Sequence record: NC_054910.1
Strand: one strand, 5' to 3'
Source: Escherichia phage EcNP1
DNA length: 64,000 nt
Made by a program: the position numbers and the translations under genes. Under the pieces are notes generated by a model that saw only the letters and a program-made list of their open reading frames with translations, was not told the DNA's origin and made no database searches. Positions within the stretch are counted from its first letter, which is position 1. Every line of letters begins with the position of its first letter. Of the stretch, positions 1,427 to 21,117 are shown piece after piece.

Positions 1427-1531
1427 TTACATACTCCTTTGAATAATATCAATAATGTTGTTCACCAGATTATAAGTAAACATTGGGTAATTATATTGAA
1501 TCATCACATACACAACAAACAAAACTTTCAT
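1427..1531 (-). CDS. small hydrophobic ORF (34 aa)
   Basis: AAGGAG 8 nt upstream of ATG; hand-translated MKVLFVVYVMIQYNYPMFTYNLVNNIIDIIQRSM; below track size cutoff. Confidence 0.3.
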   Translation of the reverse strand: MKVLFVVYVMIQYNYPMFTYNLVNNIIDIIQRSM

Positions 1532-1591
1532 TCTCTTCTCCTTGGCAGTTGGCAAGATTACTATACCATAACCTTGCCAACTTGTAAACCG

Positions 1592-2191: not shown

Positions 2192-2388
2192 GCCATATGA
2201 GTTGCAGCTTCATCACACATATCATAGCGTTTCTTAAGAAGTTCTACAAGTTCTTCACTAGTAACTTCATCCATGTCGACGAAAAAATCACCATTAATGA
2301 TAACGTAGATATTTCCTTCTTGATTAAGTGCTTCAATTTTCATGATGTTCTCCTCTTTATCCGATGGTTGTATAATATCACAGCTCAA
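2155..2388 (-). CDS. hypothetical small acidic protein
   Basis: ORF; probable start at internal Met ([10 protein letters not shown]...). Confidence 0.5.
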
Positions 2389-2410
2389 ATAGAAAGTAAA
2401 CCGGTAAAAT

Positions 2411-3366: not shown

Positions 3367-3374
3367 TATTTATA
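3367..3374 (-). promoter_or_regulatory. T4-type late promoter TATAAATA
   Basis: TATAAATA on minus strand about 26 nt upstream of the 3341 start. Confidence 0.5.
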
Positions 3375-6076: not shown

Positions 6077-6538
6077 TCATTGAGTTTTAATTACTGCTTT
6101 AGAAGCCTTTCCCGGTAAACGACGACTATTGATAATTGCCATCCTGCACTGAAGTGACGGGTCTTTGAACTTCGCATTAGGTTTACAAACTGTAAATCCA
6201 AGCCAAAGATTTCCATCTGTGATTTCTAAACGCCCAGGACGATATTCAACCCCATCAATAAAATCCTCATCAATGTCAGGCCGCGGAGGCATACTCAGGA
6301 ATTCATTAACTTCTAAAACATGGTCTTTTATTTTGTGGAATAATTCAAAAACATATGTCTCATCAATCTCCCGCTGAATTGCACGATCAAGAAGATGCTG
6401 AGAATATTTTAGATGAAACGATGAGACTCCTGCTGCTTTTGATGCCTCACGAATCTCATTGTTAATTTGACGAAACTCCGACTCAAAATGACGACGGAGT
6501 TTATTTCGACGGATAAAAACTTCTGTGTTGATAGTCAT
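6077..6538 (-). CDS. regB: RegB site-specific endoribonuclease
   Basis: 153 aa, length and sequence match T4 RegB as recalled. Confidence 0.85.
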   Translation of the reverse strand: MTINTEVFIRRNKLRRHFESEFRQINNEIREASKAAGVSSFHLKYSQHLLDRAIQREIDETYVFELFHKIKDHVLEVNEFLSMPPRPDIDEDFIDGVEYRPGRLEITDGNLWLGFTVCKPNAKFKDPSLQCRMAIINSRRLPGKASKAVIKTQ

Positions 6539-6544
6539 GTTATT

Positions 6545-6595
6545 CTCCTCTTAACTGATAGAAAAATTATACCACAGTCAAGAGGAAAAGTAAAC
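6545..6595 (-). promoter_or_regulatory. early sigma70-type promoter with -10 inside a hairpin
   Basis: minus strand GTTTAC-N18-TATAAT; inverted repeat TCCTCTT/AAGAGGA flanks the -10 and supplies the regB SD. Confidence 0.5.
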
Positions 6596-8643: not shown

Positions 8644-8772
8644 TTCTGTATTTACCCATTACCGCACTTGGGCTCGACCTTATTACAGGTTGGCGGGAAT
8701 CCCTCATAGAATCATGAGGTCCAGCTTGTTCCCATGTTATTTGAATGTAAATAGGCCTAAGTATCGGCCTTA

Positions 8773-9348
8773 TTAATTACCACGGGCTGCATTAGCAACG
8801 GCGTAAGCATACTGAACATTAGCGTCTTTAAACGTACCTTTAGAGGTATCTAGTTCTGCCTTAAAGCCGCCTTTAGTCATAACCTCGGCGAATTCTTTAC
8901 GGAAAGCCATTGCATCAAGACCTTTCCATGCCGATTTGTGCTTGGCAAATTCAAGACCGGCGAAGTTGACAGCCTTAGCTAATTTATTATCAATAACCCA
9001 TTTACCAGCTTTAGGCGCAAACACTGGGCCTTTCTGTTTAGAGAATAATTTTAAATTCCAGCGACGAAGGTCACCGTCAGCTTTAACAAAAGCTGCGTCC
9101 AAGTTACTAGCAACAACATCTTGAATATGGCCAAATTTAAGCCCATCAACTTCAATATTTAGATCAGTACGCCAGCGAAGTCCTTCCCAAGCGAAAGCTT
9201 TAAAGTCGGAAGCTTTTGTAGCTAAGTATCGTTCAATAGGGGCTGTTTTAGGGTCAAAACCATTTCCTCGGTAAGTCCACTCATCTTTATTAATGCCTTT
9301 GGCCTTTTCCACAGAAGCTTCAGCGATAAATTCTTTATACGTTTTCAT
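8773..9348 (-). CDS. ipIII: internal protein III (capsid-targeted, injected)
   Basis: 191 aa; N-terminal capsid-targeting motif MKTYKEFIAE; size matches T4 IPIII. Confidence 0.8.
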   Translation of the reverse strand: MKTYKEFIAEASVEKAKGINKDEWTYRGNGFDPKTAPIERYLATKASDFKAFAWEGLRWRTDLNIEVDGLKFGHIQDVVASNLDAAFVKADGDLRRWNLKLFSKQKGPVFAPKAGKWVIDNKLAKAVNFAGLEFAKHKSAWKGLDAMAFRKEFAEVMTKGGFKAELDTSKGTFKDANVQYAYAVANAARGN

Positions 9349-9369
9349 GTGTTTCCTTGTTTGTTTTGA

Positions 9370-9406
9370 TAGAGTAATTATACCATATTAATACTTAAGC
9401 GTAAAC
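9370..9406 (-). promoter_or_regulatory. early promoter upstream of ipIII
   Basis: minus strand GTTTAC-N17-TATAAT ending about 25 nt upstream of the ipIII ATG. Confidence 0.5.
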
Positions 9407-9409
9407 TGT

Positions 9410-9664
9410 TTAAGCTTTACCGCCAGAAATAATTCCGAAGTTGTTAAAATCGTATCCAATATCGTCAACATCTACTTTAGGGCTTACTACAACATAAGCA
9501 ATTTCACTACGTTTTGCATAGGTGTTTATTTCTTTACCATTGCCGCCTGAGAAAGAATACCCATTACGTTTTAATGAGCCAAAATCTTCGGCATCACCAA
9601 TGAAAGCTTTAACTTTAAATTTGGGGCCTTTGGCATCTGCTTCAGCGATAAATTCTTGATACAT
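9410..9664 (-). CDS. internal-protein-like (ipII-like)
   Basis: 84 aa starting MYQEFIAE|A, the IP capsid-targeting motif; AGGAAA SD. Confidence 0.6.
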   Translation of the reverse strand: MYQEFIAEADAKGPKFKVKAFIGDAEDFGSLKRNGYSFSGGNGKEINTYAKRSEIAYVVVSPKVDVDDIGYDFNNFGIISGGKA

Positions 9665-9676
9665 TTTAATTTTTCC

Positions 9677-10090
9677 TTAGTAAATTGATTTACCATAGTA
9701 TTTGTACCAAGTAGGACGTTGAGCAATTTTTTCATCTAAGCATGCTTGACTTATCGCAATGGACGCTTCGTCCGGGACATAATTATTACGAAATTCGGCA
9801 GGGATGTCGGAAATATCCTGGACAGTCGTGTCCTTGATTTTGAAACCACGTTTCAAGCATTCAGCGATTAGCTCGATTTGACGTAAACGTAAAAATTCGA
9901 GTTTGTCGTAAAAGAATGTTACGTGACCTGTGCCTAATATAAATGTTGGAGAGATTTTAAAATCCTTTACACATTTACCGTTTTGAACATGTTTACGGAC
10001 TGCACCAAATACGCGTGGTAATTCACGATACTCAGCCATAAGATGTTGGTCGGCCAATTCAGAAACAAGTGTTAAATTGATACGGGTCAT
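9677..10090 (-). CDS. denV: endonuclease V, pyrimidine-dimer DNA glycosylase
   Basis: 137 aa from [29 protein letters not shown], near-identical to T4 endo V as recalled; GGAGG SD; track ORF has a 4-codon upstream extension. Confidence 0.95.
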
Positions 10091-10147
10091 AATTTCCTCC
10101 AAGTAGTTGATGAATGTATAGTATCAAAACCCTTGGAGGAAGTAAAC
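10091..10147 (-). promoter_or_regulatory. early promoter with -10 inside a hairpin
   Basis: GTTTAC-N18-TACTAT; inverted repeat TTCCTCCAAG/CTTGGAGGAA flanks the -10; second arm is the denV SD. Confidence 0.5.
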
Positions 10148-10148
10148 A

Positions 10149-10951
<803 letters not shown>

Positions 10952-11407
10952 TTAAAAGAGGTTGTTCATTATTCGGTAAAGTGAAGGACCCATCACATAT
11001 TGCCACTGAGTGCGAGGAATAAGAGCAAAAGCATCCATCTCTGGAATCATAACACCATCTTTATTTTCAAAATAAGACTCGCAATGGCAATTTCTAAACA
11101 TCTCATGCTCTACTGGAATCGTATAATAAAATAACTGAAGGTCTTTATTACTAGAATATTTAAATACACCTAGGTCTTCTAGAAGGTCTGGATTATAATT
11201 GCTAAAACCAGTCTCTTCTAAACATTCTCTTCGTGCTGCATCTAGTGCGTTTAAATCAGAATTTTCTACACGGCCTTTTGGAATATCCCAGCGATGTGCC
11301 ATCATTCCAGGCTTACGAGAACCAGTAACCCGTCCCATGAATAAATCTTTATCTTCTGTCATAAAGATAATACCAGCTGATAGTGTTTTCATTTTAATTT
11401 CCTGCAT
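10952..11407 (-). CDS. nudE: Nudix hydrolase
   Basis: 151 aa; Nudix box RRECLEETGF; T4 nudE (e.1) position. Confidence 0.8.
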   Translation of the reverse strand: MQEIKMKTLSAGIIFMTEDKDLFMGRVTGSRKPGMMAHRWDIPKGRVENSDLNALDAARRECLEETGFSNYNPDLLEDLGVFKYSSNKDLQLFYYTIPVEHEMFRNCHCESYFENKDGVMIPEMDAFALIPRTQWQYVMGPSLYRIMNNLF

Positions 11408-12631: not shown

Positions 12632-13193
12632 ATTTTTCTAGTAATAAATCGCTTTCAAAATTGGGATTTTCCACGAATTTATCAAAAAGATCATCAATAA
12701 TAGTCAAGATATTCCTTTTATTAAGAATACGCTTATTTTCATATTTTGTTTCAGAGTCAACTATAAGAGTAAAGAAATATTTCTTTCCCTGAAATTTTAC
12801 CGTAGTATCAATATAGAACAAATTTGACTTTTGTAAATTACGTTTAAACCATGCGTCACTTAAACTATAAACGCCAAGATAATCATAATCGTCATTTAAA
12901 TAACAAACTGTCCATTCAGGAGAAATGAAATCAGTAAATTCAACATCAAAATCACACGTCAATGAATGAATTGATTCAATACTGTTAATGAGTATTCCAG
13001 GACGTATTAAAGACTTTTTACCTCTAGAAAATCTTCCAGAAAGACTTTCATCAGTTTCATATGAAGACCCCCAATAGTAATTACGTCCTTCTGCCATACG
13101 TTTAAGAGCATTTAGTAATTGGTCTGGAACATCAACCTGTCTTTGGAACTCTTCAAACATTGAATTGAAATCACTTTGCATTTTCATTTTCAT
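12579..13193 (-). CDS. hypothetical protein
   Basis: 204-aa ORF; no motif recognised. Confidence 0.5.
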   Translation of the reverse strand: MKMKMQSDFNSMFEEFQRQVDVPDQLLNALKRMAEGRNYYWGSSYETDESLSGRFSRGKKSLIRPGILINSIESIHSLTCDFDVEFTDFISPEWTVCYLNDDYDYLGVYSLSDAWFKRNLQKSNLFYIDTTVKFQGKKYFFTLIVDSETKYENKRILNKRNILTIIDDLFDKFVENPNFESDLLLEKFVKECREYVKAITIPSK

Positions 13194-13214
13194 TCCTATT
13201 TACTCCAAGTATAA

Positions 13215-13228
13215 GGGGCCGAAGCCCC
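13215..13228 (-). terminator. GGGGC-UUCG-GCCCC hairpin
   Basis: perfect hairpin with UUCG tetraloop just downstream of the 13235 stop; same sequence recurs at 54032..54045. Confidence 0.45.
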
Positions 13229-13234
13229 TTATCA

Positions 13235-13828
13235 TTATTTCAGAGAATTAATGTATTCCTGAACATCGGCAGAGGTAGTTTCAACCCCGGAAATATTACC
13301 GTTAAAGGTTTCAACTCGAGCAAGAGTATCTTCAATATCAACCTTAGTTAGCGCTGCGATTTCAACTACATCATCAGCAGTACTAATTCCAAGGGCATTT
13401 GCCGCACGAGTTTCACGGATATATTCCAATTTAACTGCAAGTTCTTGACGAGCATCATCTAACTCAACTACTTTCTTGGCGATTTCAATTCGCATTTCAG
13501 CATAACCATCAGCTTTAGTAGTCAACTGCTCAGCTGTTCGACGATATAGTAAACCGAGCTTAGCATGCATTGTTACATCTTGACCTTCGGAAAGAAGTTT
13601 GCGAATTTCACGCTCTTTTGATTCGGCTTGTCGATTCTTTTCGATAACAAGTTCACGAATACGTTTTTCTTCATTAATAGATTTAACAGAAGCAGTTTTT
13701 AGGTCTTTAATTTTGTCAAGAAGTTTTGCTGCTGCAGCAGTATACTGTTCTTCAACAGATAGATTTTTAGCCATAGCAGAACCAAGTTTAGTGCGAATAA
13801 ACTCAACAATTTTCTTCAGTGTGTTCAT
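13235..13828 (-). CDS. coiled-coil protein (PspA-like architecture)
   Basis: 197 aa, predicted long helices with heptad-like K/E/R spacing; weak resemblance only. Confidence 0.45.
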
Positions 13829-13871
13829 AGTATTTCCTTAGGTTGATTAAAAATTAAAATCTGTGGAAGAA

Positions 13872-14402
13872 TTATATCATGCTATTTAAGAGATGTAAAC
13901 TATTTTTAATTTTACAAATTCGTTCAGCTTCTTCAACAGCGGCGGCGATAATGCTTTTAGCTATAGGAGTACTAATACTAGTAGCTTTTACACTTAACAC
14001 GATTTCTTTATCTTTACCAGGCCAACCCCACGATTTTTCACCGTGAGTGCCTTTAATTACAGCAGACACCTCAAGTGAGCATCCATTATCATATGTTTTT
14101 ACATTGACAACCCAAGGTTCACTTTTCTCAATCGGTTTCTCAATCGGTTTATCCCAGTAAATATTAAGAATACGTGGGACATCAAATTTGGCAGGACAAA
14201 TCTTAACTGTAAGACCTTCGCTTTCTAGCCAATTAATAAGAGGGCGTTCATACAGGCGACGATGTGGGCTTGGGATTCGACAAGCCTTATGTCCGTTGCT
14301 TGCGGCTTCACTAAGCTGTTCTAATACCTGCTTTTGCATTATTGATAAGATACCATCAAAAGATTTTTCGGAAGTTTCATTCAGTTCGGTATAAAGAGAC
14401 AT
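13872..14402 (-). CDS. hypothetical protein
   Basis: 176-aa ORF. Confidence 0.5.
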   Translation of the reverse strand: MSLYTELNETSEKSFDGILSIMQKQVLEQLSEAASNGHKACRIPSPHRRLYERPLINWLESEGLTVKICPAKFDVPRILNIYWDKPIEKPIEKSEPWVVNVKTYDNGCSLEVSAVIKGTHGEKSWGWPGKDKEIVLSVKATSISTPIAKSIIAAAVEEAERICKIKNSLHLLNSMI

Positions 14403-14414
14403 AACAGTTTCCTC

Positions 14415-14457
14415 AAATTATAGGCTCATAATATCTCAATCATGAGCCTATGTAAAC
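14415..14457 (-). promoter_or_regulatory. early promoter with -10 inside a hairpin
   Basis: GTTTAC then inverted repeat TAGGCTCAT/ATGAGCCTA enclosing TATTAT. Confidence 0.45.
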
Positions 14458-14775
14458 TTATTTCATATTATTAAAATATTCTTCTGCGATTTCGTCGTTA
14501 TCATGGTAAACTTTAGAAGACAGTTTAACATAACCTTCAGCAGTGAACATGTTAATCACAACATTTACAGTATACCACTGACCATCTTCATTACCCATTA
14601 CTGCGTAAGTTTCAAACATCGGATGATCAGGACCGATAACTTTAATATCATTCACTGTACGACCGAAATCTTCTGAAACGCATTTCATAAAGAAGTTGAA
14701 CAGTTCGCCGTAATTATCCATTTCATTCTCCAAGTTGTTTTTCTGTATCAGTAGTTGATAGTTGTATAGTACCAT
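14458..14775 (-). CDS. hypothetical protein
   Basis: track ORF 105 aa; a GTTTAC-N17-GTACTAT promoter overlaps the first ATG, so the likely start is the internal Met (MDNYGELF...) with GGAG SD, giving 87 aa. Confidence 0.5.
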   Translation of the reverse strand: MVLYNYQLLIQKNNLENEMDNYGELFNFFMKCVSEDFGRTVNDIKVIGPDHPMFETYAVMGNEDGQWYTVNVVINMFTAEGYVKLSSKVYHDNDEIAEEYFNNMK

Positions 14776-14927
14776 GGAAGAACAGGGATGTAAACAGTTT
14801 TGTGAAAAATTTTTTAAAAAGTTTTAGGGAATTCTAGGGAAGGGAGGGGCAATTAAAGGATAGGATAATATATTATAAAGGGTAGAAACTAAATGATGCT
14901 TAGAGAGGTCCAGAAAGGCCTAGATAC

Positions 14928-14953
14928 CAAAAAGCCCTATCATTTAGATAGGG
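14928..14953 (-). terminator. rho-independent terminator
   Basis: CCCTATC-N5-GATAGGG hairpin followed by CUUUUUG on the minus strand, downstream of the 14962 gene. Confidence 0.55.
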
Positions 14954-14961
14954 ATTTAAAA

Positions 14962-15525
14962 TTATTTATCTAGTTTAGTTATTATAGCTTCTGCGGCAGC
15001 TTTTAGCTTAGATGCAGTGTTAATACGATTTTTAATTTCAGTATACGCATCGCCAAGAACATCAAGGCTATCAGAATAAACACTTACACTATTGCGTTCG
15101 CTATTTGAAATAAAACCTTTAGTTTTACGATCAAAATCGGTGTACACGTCTTGAAGATCACGGGCAGCCTTCTTTGCATCATCCAATGCATCAAGAGCTT
15201 TATTCAAAGCATTAACATATTTTTTAGTGTCAAACATATTCTTAGAAATTTTAACAGGTGCACGTTCAGGAGTAGCTAAGGCAGATTTAGGAACATGAGC
15301 GCCAGATGCCAATTTCTTAGAAATTTTGAAAAACGCTTTATTGAATTTATTTTCTTGACTCATCGTAAAAGAACTATTATCGATGTTATACATTTCAATA
15401 GCTTTAGCTTTCCACTTAAGAAAATCGCCACGGTCTTTTGGGTCTAATTGAAAGAATACTTTAGTAAGATCTGCTTCAGACGGTAATTTTGCTGCTTCGG
15501 TCAAAAATTCGGCATAGGTTTTCAT
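14962..15525 (-). CDS. internal-protein-like protein
   Basis: 187 aa beginning MKTYAEFLTE|A, the IP capsid-targeting motif; AAGGA SD. Confidence 0.6.
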   Translation of the reverse strand: MKTYAEFLTEAAKLPSEADLTKVFFQLDPKDRGDFLKWKAKAIEMYNIDNSSFTMSQENKFNKAFFKISKKLASGAHVPKSALATPERAPVKISKNMFDTKKYVNALNKALDALDDAKKAARDLQDVYTDFDRKTKGFISNSERNSVSVYSDSLDVLGDAYTEIKNRINTASKLKAAAEAIITKLDK

Positions 15526-15612: not shown

Positions 15613-15643
15613 ACTAAAAAGCCCCAACCTTTCGGTCGGGGCT
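15613..15643 (-). terminator. rho-independent terminator (copy 1 of duplicated element)
   Basis: minus RNA GCCCCGACC-GAAA-GGUUGGGGC then UUUUU; 33-nt block identical to 16169..16199. Confidence 0.7.
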
Positions 15644-15650
15644 AAGAATG

Positions 15651-16094
15651 TTATTTGATTTGTTTAGCAGACCAAATGCGGTCTTTAATAATTTTTTGGA
15701 TGTCTTCAACATACTCTAGGTCATGAGCATGTGGGTTGTCTTTGAAACTATAAGCACGGGCTAACTTTTGGCCTTCGGTTTTGATTACTAAAAGCTCTTT
15801 AAGGATAGCTTCATATTTAGCGATAATTCCTTTAACAATATTTTTTTCTTGTGCAGCTTTAGGATCTGCTTTAGGAGCAGGTTTACCGGAAGGTTTTTCG
15901 AAAGCCGCACCAGTAGCAACCAGGCTTTTCCAGGCGGTGGTAACATAGTTACCCACAAAGCCTTCAGCTCTCATATCGTCGTAGAACTTGTACCTGGATT
16001 CGTCAGAAGCATCTTTATAAGAATATTTACCAGCTTTAATAGCAGCAGTTGCTACAGCGCGAACATCTGAAGCGGATGCTTCATTTAACACCAC
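15651..16094 (-). CDS. internal-protein-like protein, N-terminal capsid-targeting motif in a different frame
   Basis: track ORF starts at GTG; 29 nt upstream an SD+ATG opens MKSYAQF then stops; one extra T in the TTTT run would give MKSYAQFLNEVVLNEAS... Confidence 0.5.
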   Translation of the reverse strand: MVLNEASASDVRAVATAAIKAGKYSYKDASDESRYKFYDDMRAEGFVGNYVTTAWKSLVATGAAFEKPSGKPAPKADPKAAQEKNIVKGIIAKYEAILKELLVIKTEGQKLARAYSFKDNPHAHDLEYVEDIQKIIKDRIWSAKQIK

Positions 16095-16161
16095 TTCATT
16101 TAAAATTGAGCATATGATTTCATCTTATTTCCTGTTTTAATTCGTGATTTAATACACTACT

Positions 16162-16169
16162 ATATTTAT
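16162..16169 (-). promoter_or_regulatory. T4-type late promoter TATAAATA
   Basis: TATAAATA on minus strand about 38 nt upstream of the ATG at 16123, abutting the upstream terminator. Confidence 0.5.
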
Positions 16170-18504: not shown

Positions 18505-18690
18505 TTATTCACCTTTAGAAATTTTATCCATAACGATAGCAATTAAACCAATTAAAAATGCTACTACAAGTGAAAACACATTTTCTGCTGTAGTTAATAA
18601 TCCGCATATAAATCCAACAAACATTGAAAAACTAAAAGCGGAAGCAGAAATTGCAATAGCAACATTTCGAATTAATTCACAGCGTTTCAT
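18505..18690 (-). CDS. small membrane protein
   Basis: 61 aa, two hydrophobic helices; GAGGAG SD. Confidence 0.5.
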   Translation of the reverse strand: MKRCELIRNVAIAISASAFSFSMFVGFICGLLTTAENVFSLVVAFLIGLIAIVMDKISKGE

Positions 18691-18704
18691 TTTATTCTCC
18701 TCAG

Positions 18705-18748
18705 TAGTTGATAGGGTAATAGTATCACAACTAAAACCCTATGTAAAC
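18705..18748 (-). promoter_or_regulatory. early promoter with -10 inside a hairpin
   Basis: TTTCACAAAGTTGTTTACA then inverted repeat TAGGGT/ACCCTA enclosing GATACTAT. Confidence 0.5.
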
Positions 18749-18766
18749 AACTTTGTGAAATATTTA

Positions 18767-19054
18767 TTACAAAAGATTTTTAGCAATAATCTTGAGATGT
18801 GCCGCAGAAATGTGTTTAGCTTTAAACAACGCAGTTTCTTCAGCAGGAGAGATAATGATTGTAGCACCATCCTTTTTAGCAGACCACCCATCACCTAGGT
18901 AAACAGTACCTTTGATTTCTTCGCCATCAACCAAACTAATCATTGGTTTACCTTCTCGTCCTTTATTTGCTTTAATAACTTCAGAAGTAAGAGTAGCTTC
19001 AGTAATAGTAGAAACCGGGGTAGTTGTAGAAGTAAATTCTTTGAAAGTTTTCAT
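18767..19054 (-). CDS. ipI: internal protein I-like (capsid-targeted, injected)
   Basis: 95 aa; MKTFKEF... with predicted protease cleavage after ITE at residue 19, consistent with T4 IPI processing. Confidence 0.75.
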   Translation of the reverse strand: MKTFKEFTSTTTPVSTITEATLTSEVIKANKGREGKPMISLVDGEEIKGTVYLGDGWSAKKDGATIIISPAEETALFKAKHISAAHLKIIAKNLL

Positions 19055-19074
19055 TTTATTTTCCTAATTAATTT

Positions 19075-19114
19075 TGATGAGATAATAGTATCACTACCTC
19101 ATCAGCGTGTAAAC
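19075..19114 (-). promoter_or_regulatory. early promoter with -10 inside a hairpin
   Basis: TTTCACAAAGTTGTTTACA then inverted repeat GATGAG/CTCATC enclosing GATACTAT. Confidence 0.5.
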
Positions 19115-19812: not shown

Positions 19813-20537
19813 TATAGTACCTTTAGTGTATTTTTAATTTTAGAAAAAAGTTCTTCAAGAGAACCATCGTTTGTAATTACTAAATCGCCATTACGAATTG
19901 GCAATCCAGCTTCTGTAATATGTGTATCATTGGATTTTTGACCAGGACGAACTACATGAATTACTGTAGCACCCATCGCCCTAGCCGCATCCATTTCATG
20001 GTCTTGACGAGTATCAGGAACGATATAATAATCATAACCTGAGTTAAATTTATCAAGATAATCTAAAGCAAATAATTTTACCCAATACATGCGGTCGAAG
20101 TTATTAACAATCAAATCCGTACCTAGGGCTTGCATCAGACGACGGACTGACCATTGATCTTCAATATTATTTATAACGTCAGCAATCTTATTAAATGCTA
20201 CGAAAGTAACTGATTCTTTTCCTTCGTCATCAAAAACAAACACACCTTTAATTGGGCTTTTACTATTAAGATAGCAAAATGCTTGTTCCATAATCGTAAT
20301 TACTTCTAATTTAGTCAGATTTAAATTAGTCTCACGATCATAGTCAATTCCTTCAAACTCTTTACGAGTTAAACAAGGATAGTCAGTGTTTGCTGCAAAT
20401 ACACCCCATGCATAAGCCAATGCATCTTTAATAGGACCAGCAAGTTGATATTTAACTGCAGAATAATTATTCATGATAAAATCTGCAGTAGTATCTTTTC
20501 CACTACGCTTTACACCACTTAAAAAGATTAGTTTCAT
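19812..20537 (-). CDS. 1: deoxynucleoside monophosphate kinase gp1
   Basis: 241 aa, P-loop GVKRSGKDT. Confidence 0.9.
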
Positions 20538-20586
20538 ATGTTTCTCCTCAAATTTAGTTAAGATTATAACACATGAAACTGAAGCA

Positions 20587-21117
20587 TTAAACTTCTGCTA
20601 TAATTTTGCCATCTTTTTCTACTTGAAAATACGTATAAGGAATCGTTGCTGTACATACTAAAGCTGGGTCTGAATCTTCAGTGTAGCTAAATTCTACTTC
20701 AGACAGGTCAGAAACCCAAGGCTTATAAAAATTTATTGACATCACGATTTCAGTTTTACTATTATCTAAAATGTAAAGCGTAATGTATTCAGGACCTGTT
20801 TTTTGGGCAGTATTTTCACCTGTAAGATAGTTACTAGTTCCTAGCATCCATTCATACATTCCTATCCACGACTTAAGCTCTTCATCAACTATAAATCTCA
20901 CGATGAGTGGGTCATACTCAAATGTAACTCCTGGACGCTGTGCTCGGCCTAGTCCAAACGGCCCAGTCACGGTATCAGTAACAGGTATTCTAATTCCTGG
21001 AATAGGAACTGACTGAGCATTTAAAGTAAAAGCAGATGTAGTATTACTATGCGGTATTGATACTACAAAGTTAGTTGTATTTGCTTGGTTAAAAATTTGT
21101 TGTAGTGCTTGCGACAT
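20587..21117 (-). CDS. 3: tail tube terminator / sheath stabiliser gp3
   Basis: 176 aa from MSQALQQIFNQANTTNFVVS...; track ORF carries a 27-codon upstream extension. Confidence 0.85.
   Translation of the reverse strand: MSQALQQIFNQANTTNFVVSIPHSNTTSAFTLNAQSVPIPGIRIPVTDTVTGPFGLGRAQRPGVTFEYDPLIVRFIVDEELKSWIGMYEWMLGTSNYLTGENTAQKTGPEYITLYILDNSKTEIVMSINFYKPWVSDLSEVEFSYTEDSDPALVCTATIPYTYFQVEKDGKIIAEV

Follow-up and report, generated by a model that had tools for sequence, protein, structure and literature searches.

Early promoters in the denV region of phage EcNP1

The window analyzed in this study, 64,000 nucleotides (nt) of record NC_054910.1, comes from the Tequatrovirus (T4-like) genome of Escherichia phage EcNP1, and we describe here a set of minus-strand early promoters in it, one of them at 10091-10147, several of which carry a hairpin around the −10 box. 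T4 is the reference system for timed phage gene expression, and its early genes lie under overlapping early, middle, and late transcripts. The minus-strand early region of EcNP1 occupies the first 22.5 kb of the window, in the order (Nami/T4 names) mobD.x, rI, tk, vs, regB, ipIII, denV, e, e.x open reading frames (ORFs), tRNA cluster, ipI, and genes 57, 1, 3, and 2. The ORF downstream of the 10091-10147 site was recognized by its N-terminus as T4 endonuclease V (denV). The 3-kb stretch around denV is 99.9% identical to Escherichia phage vB_EcoM_Nami (Nami position = window position + 52434) and 94-98% identical to many other Tequatrovirus phages. The gene order around denV differs from that of T4, being e-ipIII-ipII-denV-vs.8 in T4 (12940-14416 of the T4 locus compared, L002) and e-ORF (10149-10430)-denV-ORF (9410-9664)-ipIII in the window (8772-10430). 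The T4 record AF158101, in the version compared, has no promoter or stem-loop annotation.

A preliminary description of the window had listed six minus-strand sites that share GTTTAC and, about 17 nt further on, a TATAAT-like −10 box. All of the coordinates were confirmed, and the spacing could be stated more exactly: at each site GTTTAC is followed after exactly 18 nt by TATAGT, TATAAT, TACTAT, or TATTAT, and the spacer is 17 nt when counted from the −35 hexamer TTTACN. The sites are named below by the higher coordinate of each cassette (1589, 6595, 10147, 14457, 18748, and 19114; Table 1). TGn precedes the −10 box at five of the six sites, with AGA in its place at 14457; the seventh nucleotide after the −10 box is a purine at all six, and a Shine-Dalgarno (SD) sequence with an ATG stands 25-30 nt further on at every site. 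A strict search for GTTTAC-N15-19-TATAAT gave three matches, compared to 0.17 expected. When the −10 box was relaxed, ten sites with an exact GTTTAC were found, every one of them directly 5ʹ of a minus-strand gene and within the interval from 1.5 to 19.2 kb, with TGn before the −10 box in nine and a purine at the seventh nucleotide in all ten. The region upstream of the promoters was AT-rich (mean 0.77, compared to a background of 0.64; only 0.60 at 10147). An upstream stop codon lies 0-3 nt before the −35 box at four of the six sites and 12 nt before it at 19114, and was not located at 18748. T4 early promoters likewise have a GTTTAC −35 box, a 17-nt spacer, a TGn extended −10 box, TAnnnT, and an A/T-rich UP-like region, and they too stand directly upstream of early genes on the early strand (Hinton 2010, PMC2988021). 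We identify the six sites as sigma-70 early promoters of the T4 type, each fitted into an intergenic gap of about 60 nt.

Start sites in EcNP1 were predicted with a rule calibrated on T4 middle-promoter starts (PMC2988021), which places +1 at the seventh nucleotide after the −10 box. Of the nine sigma-70-type starts mapped in this region of T4, eight obey the rule, including that of P1 at 75393 (PMC2988021, Table 1), and the ninth is at the eighth nucleotide. An eleventh site, 20592 (GTTTAA), was first counted as an early promoter; it has a MotA box and corresponds, as its orthologue, to the middle promoter P1 mapped in T4, and it was reclassified as a MotA-dependent middle promoter. Many of the early promoters share a conserved stretch at the beginning of the predicted transcript, ATCAACTAC (or ATCAAAAC) from the predicted +1, over the 7th-15th nt after the −10 box (e.g., 10111-10103, 18712-18704, and 14759-14751).

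Hairpins around the −10 box

The preliminary description had also stated that in each of the six promoters the −10 box sits inside an inverted repeat, and had proposed folding each element. Compared with dinucleotide shuffles, five sites gave folding z-scores of −3.7 to −5.8 (1589, −5.2; 6595, −5.8; 10147, −4.1; 14457, −4.6; 19114, −3.7), whereas the stem at 18748 was marginal, with a z-score of only −2.1 and 5 of 200 shuffles folding equally well. The statement could not be extended to neighboring promoters. In the same test, the early promoters 2401, 9406, 13900, and 14795, which are as good as the six flagged ones, and the middle promoter 20592 had z-scores of about 0 and no such hairpin. 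In a locus swap, the pairing of a promoter's own spacer with its downstream segment reached −13 to −22 kcal/mol, compared to a mean of −7.1 kcal/mol with foreign segments; no derangement was as good as the observed mean, and 18748 (−8.8 kcal/mol) fell inside the swap range. In a mismatch-blind helix search, a score of at least 9 was reached by 24.5% of 102 unique early promoters taken from 16 genomes, compared to 1.6% of chimeric controls, which were promoters joined from non-orthologous halves, and the median helix score was at least 7 in 17 of 34 orthologue groups. The hairpins are real at five sites and marginal at 18748, which we count provisionally, and about half of the early promoters here carry one.

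The stems might have been chance complementarity in AT-rich intergenic DNA, chosen by eye. The site at 18748, taken by itself, falls in the control range, and the five stem-free neighboring promoters mean that the cases first flagged were selected. Against this stand the five z-scores, the absence of any derangement that matched the observed mean, the excess of strong helices over the chimeras, and a structure that outlives sequence turnover (see below), so that we give chance a negligible probability. It was ruled out for five of the six sites by the z-scores, the locus swap, and the persistence in relatives. Rfam covariance models run at gathering score over window positions 1-23000 matched only 10 tRNAs and none of the hairpins. 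Promoter-spanning hairpins are not described for T4 early promoters in the reviews consulted, Hinton 2010 (PMC2988021) among them.

At all six sites, the 5ʹ arm is located in the spacer that separates the −35 box from the −10 box, upstream of the predicted start, and all 53 strong helices have their 5ʹ arm upstream of the predicted start as well, in a helix search that required the arm to begin there. As the promoter's own RNA would not include an arm in that position, the hairpin should be possible only in read-through RNA (or in DNA). We infer that in EcNP1 the own transcript lacks the 5ʹ arm and that only read-through RNA folds the hairpin.

The position of the 3ʹ arm divided the sites into two classes. 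In class A (10147 and 6595), the 3ʹ arm holds the SD, whereas in class B (1589, 14457, 19114, and 18748) it ends at about +1 and the SD, 9-15 nt further downstream, is free. That the 3ʹ arm often provides the SD, as had been suggested, was therefore seen at two sites and not at the other four. The placement of the −10 box was also less uniform than described: it is in the loop at 10147, and partly within the 3ʹ arm, not the loop, at 1589, 14457, and 19114. The denV stem pairs 10141:10094 to 10132:10103, with the SD GGAGG in its 3ʹ arm, and the regB helix at 6595 comprises 15 bp, including two G·U pairs (6589-6575 with 6557-6543), and covers AAGAGGAG. At gene 1 (20592), the segment just 5ʹ of the −10 box (20575-20568) pairs with the start-codon region (20542-20535).

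Table 1. Promoter cassettes, hairpin arms, and comparison sites in the early region of the EcNP1 window (all +1 positions are predicted)
Feature	Position	Strand	Details
denV early-promoter cassette, class A	10088..10147	(-)	−35 GTTTAC 10147-10142; −10 TACTAT 10123-10118; +1 A 10111; SD GGAGG 10100-10096; ATG 10090-10088
denV hairpin 5ʹ arm, TTCCTCCAAG	10132..10141	(-)	in spacer, so expected to be untranscribed from own promoter; orthologues have other arms in that place
denV hairpin 3ʹ arm, CTTGGAGGAA	10094..10103	(-)	contains the SD
regB early-promoter cassette, class A	6536..6595	(-)	−35 6595-6590; −10 TATAAT 6571-6566; +1 A 6559; ATG 6538-6536
regB hairpin arms	6589-6575 (5ʹ); 6557-6543 (3ʹ)	(-)	5ʹ arm TTTTCCTCTTGACTG; 3ʹ arm CAGTTAAGAGGAGAA, SD included
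Cassette 5ʹ of small mobD.2a-like ORF, class B	1529..1589	(-)	−35 1589-1584; −10 TATAGT 1565-1560; +1 1553; 5ʹ arm 1582-1568; 3ʹ arm 1561-1547; SD AAGGAG ~1543-1538; ATG 1531-1529
Cassette 5ʹ of variable ORF 13872-14402, class B	14400..14457	(-)	−35 14457-14452; −10 TATTAT 14433-14428; +1 14421; 5ʹ arm 14451-14439; 3ʹ arm 14432-14420; ATG 14402-14400
ipI cassette, class B	19052..19114	(-)	−35 19114-19109; −10 TACTAT 19090-19085; +1 19078; 5ʹ arm 19104-19092; 3ʹ arm 19087-19075; ATG 19054-19052
trna.4 cassette, weak class B stem	18688..18748	(-)	−35 18748-18743; −10 TACTAT 18724-18719; +1 18712; 5ʹ arm ATAGGGT 18742-18736; 3ʹ arm ACCCTAT 18717-18711; ATG 18690-18688
Gene 1 middle promoter	20535..20592	(-)	MotA box AATGCTTCA; −10 TATAAT 20568-20563; T4 P1 orthologue
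Gene e (lysozyme) leader	10905..10990	(-)	SD-masking hairpin enclosing two late promoters (TATAAATA at 10949 and 10936); internal positive control, presumed to feed late read-through RNA into denV
Early promoter without −10-bracketing hairpin	2341..2401	(-)	fold z −1.1
ipIII early promoter without hairpin	9346..9406	(-)	fold z −0.3; breakpoint at 9358
Early promoter without hairpin	13826..13900	(-)	lower boundary of variable ORF 13872-14402; fold z +1.1; breakpoints 13845-13906
Early promoter without −10-bracketing hairpin	14719..14795	(-)	weak spacer/SD pairing; fold z −0.3; ddG 4.5

Predicted masking of ribosome-binding sites and its persistence in relatives

For each gene, the opening cost was calculated as the free energy needed to expose positions −13 to +2 of the ribosome-binding site (RBS), in RNA starting at the own promoter and in RNA starting upstream (read-through). 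The cost rose from 2.8 to 13.8 kcal/mol for denV, from 4.5 to 14.9 kcal/mol for regB, and from 5.4 to 14.2 kcal/mol for gene 1. The extra cost in read-through RNA (ddG) was thus 11.0, 10.4, and 8.9 kcal/mol, respectively, and SD or AUG pairing in the long transcript was present at 10147, 6595, and 20592; it was absent at 1589, 14457, 18748, and 19114, where the ddG was about 0. The preliminary description had overlooked both the presumed action of the hairpin on read-through RNA and the predicted masking of the RBS at denV and regB. When the 49 genes of the region were ranked by masking, regB came first (16.7 kcal/mol), denV second (13.8 kcal/mol), and e third (13.5 kcal/mol). The RBS of rI (start ~3116, minus strand) was fourth (12.5 kcal/mol), with no early promoter nearby and a late promoter core at 3374. 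Masking was gene-specific and was found in 6 of 41 orthologue groups, namely nrdC.9, regB (two groups), denV, gene 1, and one unnamed ORF.

Gene e served as a positive control from the same window, with an RBS opening cost of 3.9 kcal/mol for the late transcript and 13.5 kcal/mol for read-through RNA. In T4, early read-through RNA of e is untranslatable owing to a hairpin, and late promoters inside the hairpin yield translatable RNA (PMC3014915, section 29). The denV and regB stems resemble the arrangement of T4 e, soc, 49, and I-TevI (Uzan and Miller 2010, PMC3014915) in three respects: in the long RNA, a strand further upstream is paired with the SD or AUG; a shorter, translated RNA that lacks the 5ʹ strand comes from a promoter located within the arms or between them; and the arrangement is kept in relatives while the sequence varies. 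The energetic effect predicted for denV and regB is as large as that for gene e in this window. The T4 genes differ in having late (gp55) promoters, which delay translation to late infection, whereas the embedded promoter here is a sigma-70 early (denV and regB) or MotA-dependent middle (gene 1) promoter, which would limit translation to the early or middle period. Another difference is that the 5ʹ arm is written into the −35/−10 spacer, an option unavailable to the short late promoters; the late promoter motif TATAAATA is absent from all six cassettes. The T4 e case has been measured, whereas denV and regB are known here from predicted opening energies.

The two late promoters of e lie upstream of denV with no minus-strand terminator in between, and in T4 middle promoters have been mapped upstream of both denV (PipIII) and regB (Pvs.7). 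The existence of read-through RNA at these loci, and its amount, are presumed here. At gene 1, late read-through RNA from genes 4, 2, and 3 was predicted to carry a masked RBS (ddG 8.9 kcal/mol). For the internal-protein genes, which are needed late too, ipIII (9406) has no hairpin and the stem of ipI (19114) leaves the SD free.

The relatives compared were T4, Lutter, JoYop, and P922, 36 T4-like IMG/VR loci for denV, 11 IMG/VR loci obtained in a search with RegB, and 8 divergent regB loci, GenBank phages having been sampled since the RegB search gave only those 11. As the 5ʹ arm position differs between lineages, a single consensus structure was not attempted for denV or regB, and these loci were tested instead by comparing own with swapped complementarity. 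Among 33 upstream haplotypes of denV, there were at least ten unrelated stems, all covering the SD and all with the 5ʹ arm upstream of +1, for example TTCCTCCAAG/CTTGGAGGAA, TCTCCTGTAG/CTACAGGAGA, CTCCGTTTG/CAAACGGAG, GTGTTCTC/GAGAACAC, ATGTCCTCCTA/TAGGAGGACAT, and TAGTAGCCT/AGGCTACTA. The 5ʹ arm lies in the spacer in some relatives and over the −10 box and discriminator in others. The denV duplex energy was −14.4 kcal/mol with the own locus and −9.0 kcal/mol when swapped, and none of 5000 permutations equaled the former. The regB cassette sequence is identical in T4, and at least six different RBS-masking stems occur among the relatives of this gene: distinct stems (ddG 5-15 kcal/mol) mask the RBS in Tequatrovirus, the locus groups L088-90 and L091-93, Gelderlandvirus, Gaprivervirus, and Muldoonvirus, and masking is weaker in Karamvirus and Jiaodavirus. 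The earlier view that the structure rather than the sequence is conserved was borne out when related phages were compared.

One stem position at 1589 is G:C in the window, G·U in six phages, and A:U in T4, and a second position is G·U or A:U. Every stem substitution at the ipI promoter (19114) among relatives is a change from G:C to G·U. At 14457, the related locus L086 has a compensatory T:A to C:G change, and at 18748 JoYop and P922 form a 9-bp stem from a 5ʹ arm shifted within the spacer. In T4 AF158101.6, at record position ~70350, there is an ambiguous base N within the 5ʹ arm of the e.8 promoter hairpin (ATAGGCTNATG).

The type of mismatch bears on whether RNA or DNA is under selection. 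In 51 distinct stems, obtained in a search blind to mismatch type, the internal non-Watson-Crick positions on the sense strand were 23 G·U, 3 A·C, and 4 others, compared to 63, 31, and 195, respectively, in the chimeric controls (p = 0.012 vs. the chimera ratio; p = 4e-5 vs. 1:1). A one-sided preference for G·U over A·C would not be expected for a DNA cruciform or an antisense RNA and points to selection on sense-strand RNA holding both arms, that is, on read-through RNA. A DNA-level element (a cruciform, altered promoter melting or supercoil sensitivity, or a nuclease target promoting recombination) would fit repeats centered near the −10 box, where melting begins, and Watson-Crick covariation alone is compatible with DNA, inverted repeats being symmetric. 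However, G·U and A·C would both be mismatches in DNA, the loops of 18-28 nt at 10147 and 18748 are unfavorable for extrusion, and in several denV and regB orthologues the 3ʹ arm extends to the start codon, distant from the promoter. We consider a DNA-level element very improbable, and the cruciform in particular is disfavored by the G·U vs. A·C asymmetry. The structure is thus kept through sequence turnover, and the mismatch pattern argues for sense-strand RNA, not DNA, as the target of selection.

Our preferred explanation, to which we assign a probability of roughly 60%, is that the six sites are sigma-70 early promoters, five of them with a sense-strand RNA hairpin (and 18748 provisionally as a sixth), that they form two classes, and that the class A hairpins mask the RBS of read-through RNA. 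With the 5ʹ arm in the sequence-free spacer (or over the −10 box and discriminator in some relatives), the promoter's own RNA would stay open, and the hairpin would fold in RNA entering from upstream early, middle, or late promoters. In class A (denV and regB, with gene 1 built likewise), where the 3ʹ arm has the SD or start codon, the read-through RBS would then be masked, and the gene would be translated essentially only from own-promoter transcripts, tying its synthesis to the short active period of that promoter. Class A would in this way apply the logic proven for T4 e, soc, 49, and I-TevI to early and middle instead of late promoters. In T4, regB is transcribed from an early promoter, and its SD is efficiently cleaved in vivo within its own transcript (PMC3014915). 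The proposed masking would also restrict synthesis of RegB to the transcript whose SD the enzyme itself cuts, which fits both this self-cutting and the reported need for tight control (PMC3014915). For class B, we can offer a guess: a stem that brackets the −10 box, ends at about +1, and leaves the SD free might mark or insulate the end of the upstream transcription unit through pausing, attenuation, or a structure protecting the 3ʹ end, a role proposed for promoter-early stem-loop (PeSL) stems (PMC2839356). The shared promoter core also lets cassettes serve occasionally as crossover points.

We see even odds for a broader form of this explanation, in which, across the Tevenvirinae, the early-promoter spacer (or the segment 5ʹ of a middle −10 box) encodes the anti-SD strand, denV, regB, nrdC.9, and gene 1 are translatable only from their own promoters, and the PeSL stems of Tequatrovirus primarily insulate overlapping transcription units from one another at the level of translation, instead of serving as terminators or recombination linkers. 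The arrangement would then have been re-invented or kept through complete sequence turnover at least ten times at denV and at least six times at regB. No description of early-promoter gating by SD masking was found in the literature searched, with older T4 literature (e.g., Miller et al. 2003) outside that search; for denV and regB leader hairpins, the searches gave only two reviews and Durand 2006.

If class A works as proposed, the promoter sequence itself determines translatability, which would explain how the toxic nuclease RegB and the repair enzyme denV remain linked to the short-lived early transcripts of their own genes. It would also carry over to other temporal classes a mechanism known for four genes under late control. 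In the engineering of T4-like phages, in cassette insertion, and in promoter annotation, a spacer change may alter translation of the downstream gene.

Several points weigh against this explanation. The compared sequences share phylogeny, and the counts given above are not numbers of independent events. A ddG of at least 5 kcal/mol is also reached by 14% of the chimeric controls, since a spacer that contains CTCC will pair with any SD. Among the sampled regB loci, masking is absent in Krischvirus, Tulanevirus, and one Klebsiella phage, and it is weak in the locus L091, which has a C·A mismatch. In the 1589 alignment, pairing was 100% with three pair-preserving substitutions, but 420 of 500 shuffles did as well, so that these six near-identical sequences are uninformative. 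According to Durand 2006 (PMC1702504), it is the 3ʹ sequence context and not structure that makes the SDs of denV and gene 1 resistant to RegB. The masking energies are thermodynamic predictions whose calculation left out ribosomes terminating 0-3 nt before the −35 box, and such a ribosome would transiently melt the outer 5ʹ arm, which could turn masking into translational coupling.

In translational coupling, the read-through hairpin would hide the SD until a ribosome ending the upstream ORF melts the 5ʹ arm, and output would be proportional to the upstream gene. With upstream stops 0-3 nt before the −35 box, the 5ʹ arm begins 7-10 nt past the stop and is reachable by a terminating ribosome, and classical coupling hairpins have the same architecture. 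The denV stem, however, is kept while the upstream genes differ between phages, which suggests that the relevant partner is the promoter and not a particular upstream ORF. In addition, the comparable gene e hairpin near an upstream ORF gives about 100-fold repression (PMC3014915). We regard coupling as quite improbable.

The stems could also act on RNA stability, shielding GGAG or AU-rich sites of long transcripts from RegB or RNase E or stabilizing 3ʹ or 5ʹ ends after processing, with any translational effect being secondary. Secondary structure blocks RegB, an enzyme that cuts GGAG in early SDs and to which transcripts of the middle and late classes are resistant (PMC3014915, PMC1702504), and the denV and gene 1 SDs are RegB-resistant in vivo (PMC1702504). 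Class B stems ending at +1 could moreover protect the 3ʹ ends of upstream messages. The denV resistance, however, was reversed by a change of the 3ʹ A-rich context alone, and probing showed no structural change (Durand 2006, PMC1702504); the regB SD is cut efficiently in vivo in its own transcript, and a protected, paired SD would also be untranslatable and hence inseparable from masking. An effect primarily on stability has, in our judgment, a low probability, and masking of the read-through RBS by class A stems remains the explanation that we prefer.

Relation to promoter-early stem-loops, terminators, and recombination

The preliminary description had assigned the cassettes to the PeSL kind, and their layout broadly fits the published one. 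PeSLs have been reported for T4/PST, with the consensus TTTACW-N17-TAYWAT (Comeau 2014, PMC4122927), and the EcNP1 cassettes share with PeSLs (Arbiol et al. 2010, PMC2839356; PMC4122927) the succession of stop codon, AT-rich stretch, sigma-70-type boxes 17 nt apart, stem within or over the promoter, SD, and ATG. They also share the location in variable early regions, the G-T pairs that occur in published stems, and the position of some cassettes at indel or replacement boundaries. The boxes ~17 nt apart and the SD with a start codon at the 3ʹ end are present in all six. A stem between or overlapping the boxes and 5ʹ of the start, the PeSL placement, was found at 1589, 14457, and 19114 and, weakly, at 18748, whereas the 3ʹ arms of 10147 and 6595 are situated downstream of the start and cover the SD, outside the five published PeSL subclasses (PMC2839356). 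The RB49/phi1 PeSLs differ in having compact stems with polyG/polyC arms that are conserved between copies sharing ~100 bp, and one of them was shown to terminate transcription. The EcNP1 stems have locus-unique arms, span the −10 box with loops of up to 28 nt, lack a U-tract, and reach the SD in two cases. The PST figure legend (PMC4122927) puts the stems 'just upstream of the promoter', not across the −10 box, and SD masking is not discussed in the published PeSL papers (PMC2839356, PMC4122927).

As classical PeSLs, the stems would be terminators or attenuators, and the cassettes would mainly be recombination linkers through which the neighboring variable genes are shuffled, with mini-circle excision as one way. 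In a terminator scan, none of the six stems was listed: there is no U-tract behind any of them, and the loops measure 4-28 nt. The same scan on the same strand found bona fide terminators at 16200-16177, 15643-15620, and 14953-14935. By the sequence criteria applied (GC-rich stem, loop of 3-8 nt, and U-tract), an intrinsic terminator was rejected for all six stems. In four phage contigs of 345-378 kb (L025 and L031-L033), a GC-rich hairpin with a T-run (e.g., AAAGGGTTGACTTCGGTCAGCCCTTTTT) overlaps the −35 TTGAC upstream of a denV homologue, with TATAAT following; the denV leader of these jumbo phages is a true terminator-in-promoter design, nearer to the RB49-type PeSL.

As to recombination, the preliminary description had called these elements shuffling hotspots that bracket variable genes. 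Breakpoints relative to other phages lie inside cassettes 9406, 10147, 13900, 14457 (cluster 14400-14458), and 18748 (18731-18765), and the alignments with the L088-90 group stop exactly at the −35 box of 6595 and of 1589. Compared to random positions, breakpoints were enriched (cassettes, 4% of the sequence, held 7 of the 36 clusters; p = 5e-4); compared to other gene junctions, the enrichment was not significant (5 of 9 cassettes vs. 11 of 39 junctions, p = 0.12). The ORF between 14457 and 13900, and ipI between 19114 and 18748, are replaced in relatives, so that the bracketing was seen in these two cases, but two of the five breakpoint-bearing cassettes are hairpin-free, and hairpin-less promoters were involved equally often. 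Sequence common to cassettes amounted to 20 nt for 19114/18748 (ATTTCACAAAGTTGTTTACA), 14 nt for 18748/14795, and at most 11 nt for other pairs, the 99th percentile of the null being 10.

Crossovers within the promoter core are documented by two chimeric cassettes, in L083 and P922 (L096). In L083 (IMG/VR 3300010279_000005), denV stands behind a promoter of the T4 ipIII type, which joins the denV leader at a microhomology, ACTTG, and the SD-masking stem is lost in the fusion. P922 has an extra internal-protein gene between trna.4 and 57B, whose promoter consists of an 18748-type 5ʹ half and a 19114-type 3ʹ half joined in the GTGATACTATTACC core. The replacement of ipI (18768-19055) in relatives resembles the way in which T-even phages shuffle internal-protein genes that lie between conserved flanks (Repoila et al. 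1994, cited in PMC4122927); one of its breakpoints lies in the downstream promoter cassette (18731-18765) and the other in the conserved leader-peptide coding region (19020-19033). This replacement draws on the promoter core and leader sequence held in common, and the hairpin arms are not the shared part.

The fit of the layout, the breakpoints and alignment ends in cassettes, the chimeric cassettes, and the 20 nt in common on either side of the replaced ipI all favor the classical PeSL account, which could still hold for the class B stems. It has to contend with the negative terminator scan, with locus-specific arms that remove homology, with an enrichment over gene junctions that was not significant and cassettes that lack a hairpin, and it leaves unexplained an SD-covering stem at denV and regB kept through complete sequence turnover. 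As a full account we find it rather unlikely. Given the locus-specific arms, the little shared sequence, and the lack of a significant excess over gene junctions, the hairpin arms are unlikely to be the recombination substrate, and shuffling seems to depend on the shared promoter core, leader-peptide sequences, and repeated terminators rather than on hairpins.

With masking of the read-through RBS as the preferred explanation for class A, a translational role would probably be an addition to a known cassette type. The kind of element is already known, and what is plausibly new is its action on read-through RNA and the conserved RBS-masking subset, an extension of T4 biology and not a new category. 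For T4 proper, the PeSL model would be qualified, in that the stems resemble regulators that act at the RNA level and are subject to purifying and compensatory selection, and do not resemble terminators.

Two further breakpoint sites in the early region involve terminators. Two identical intrinsic terminators, AGCCCCGACCGAAAGGTTGGGGCT with TTTT behind it, stand on either side of the ORF 15651-16124, at 16200-16177 and at 15643-15620 (minus strand); breakpoints fall exactly at these twins (15613-15646 and 16164-16168), and P922 lacks the interval. Gain or loss of this ORF looks like exchange between the repeated terminators, not between promoter cassettes. A recurrent cluster of breakpoints at 14937-14978 coincides with the terminator-like hairpin 14953-14935 (minus strand; CCCTATCTAAATGATAGGG, then CTTTTT).

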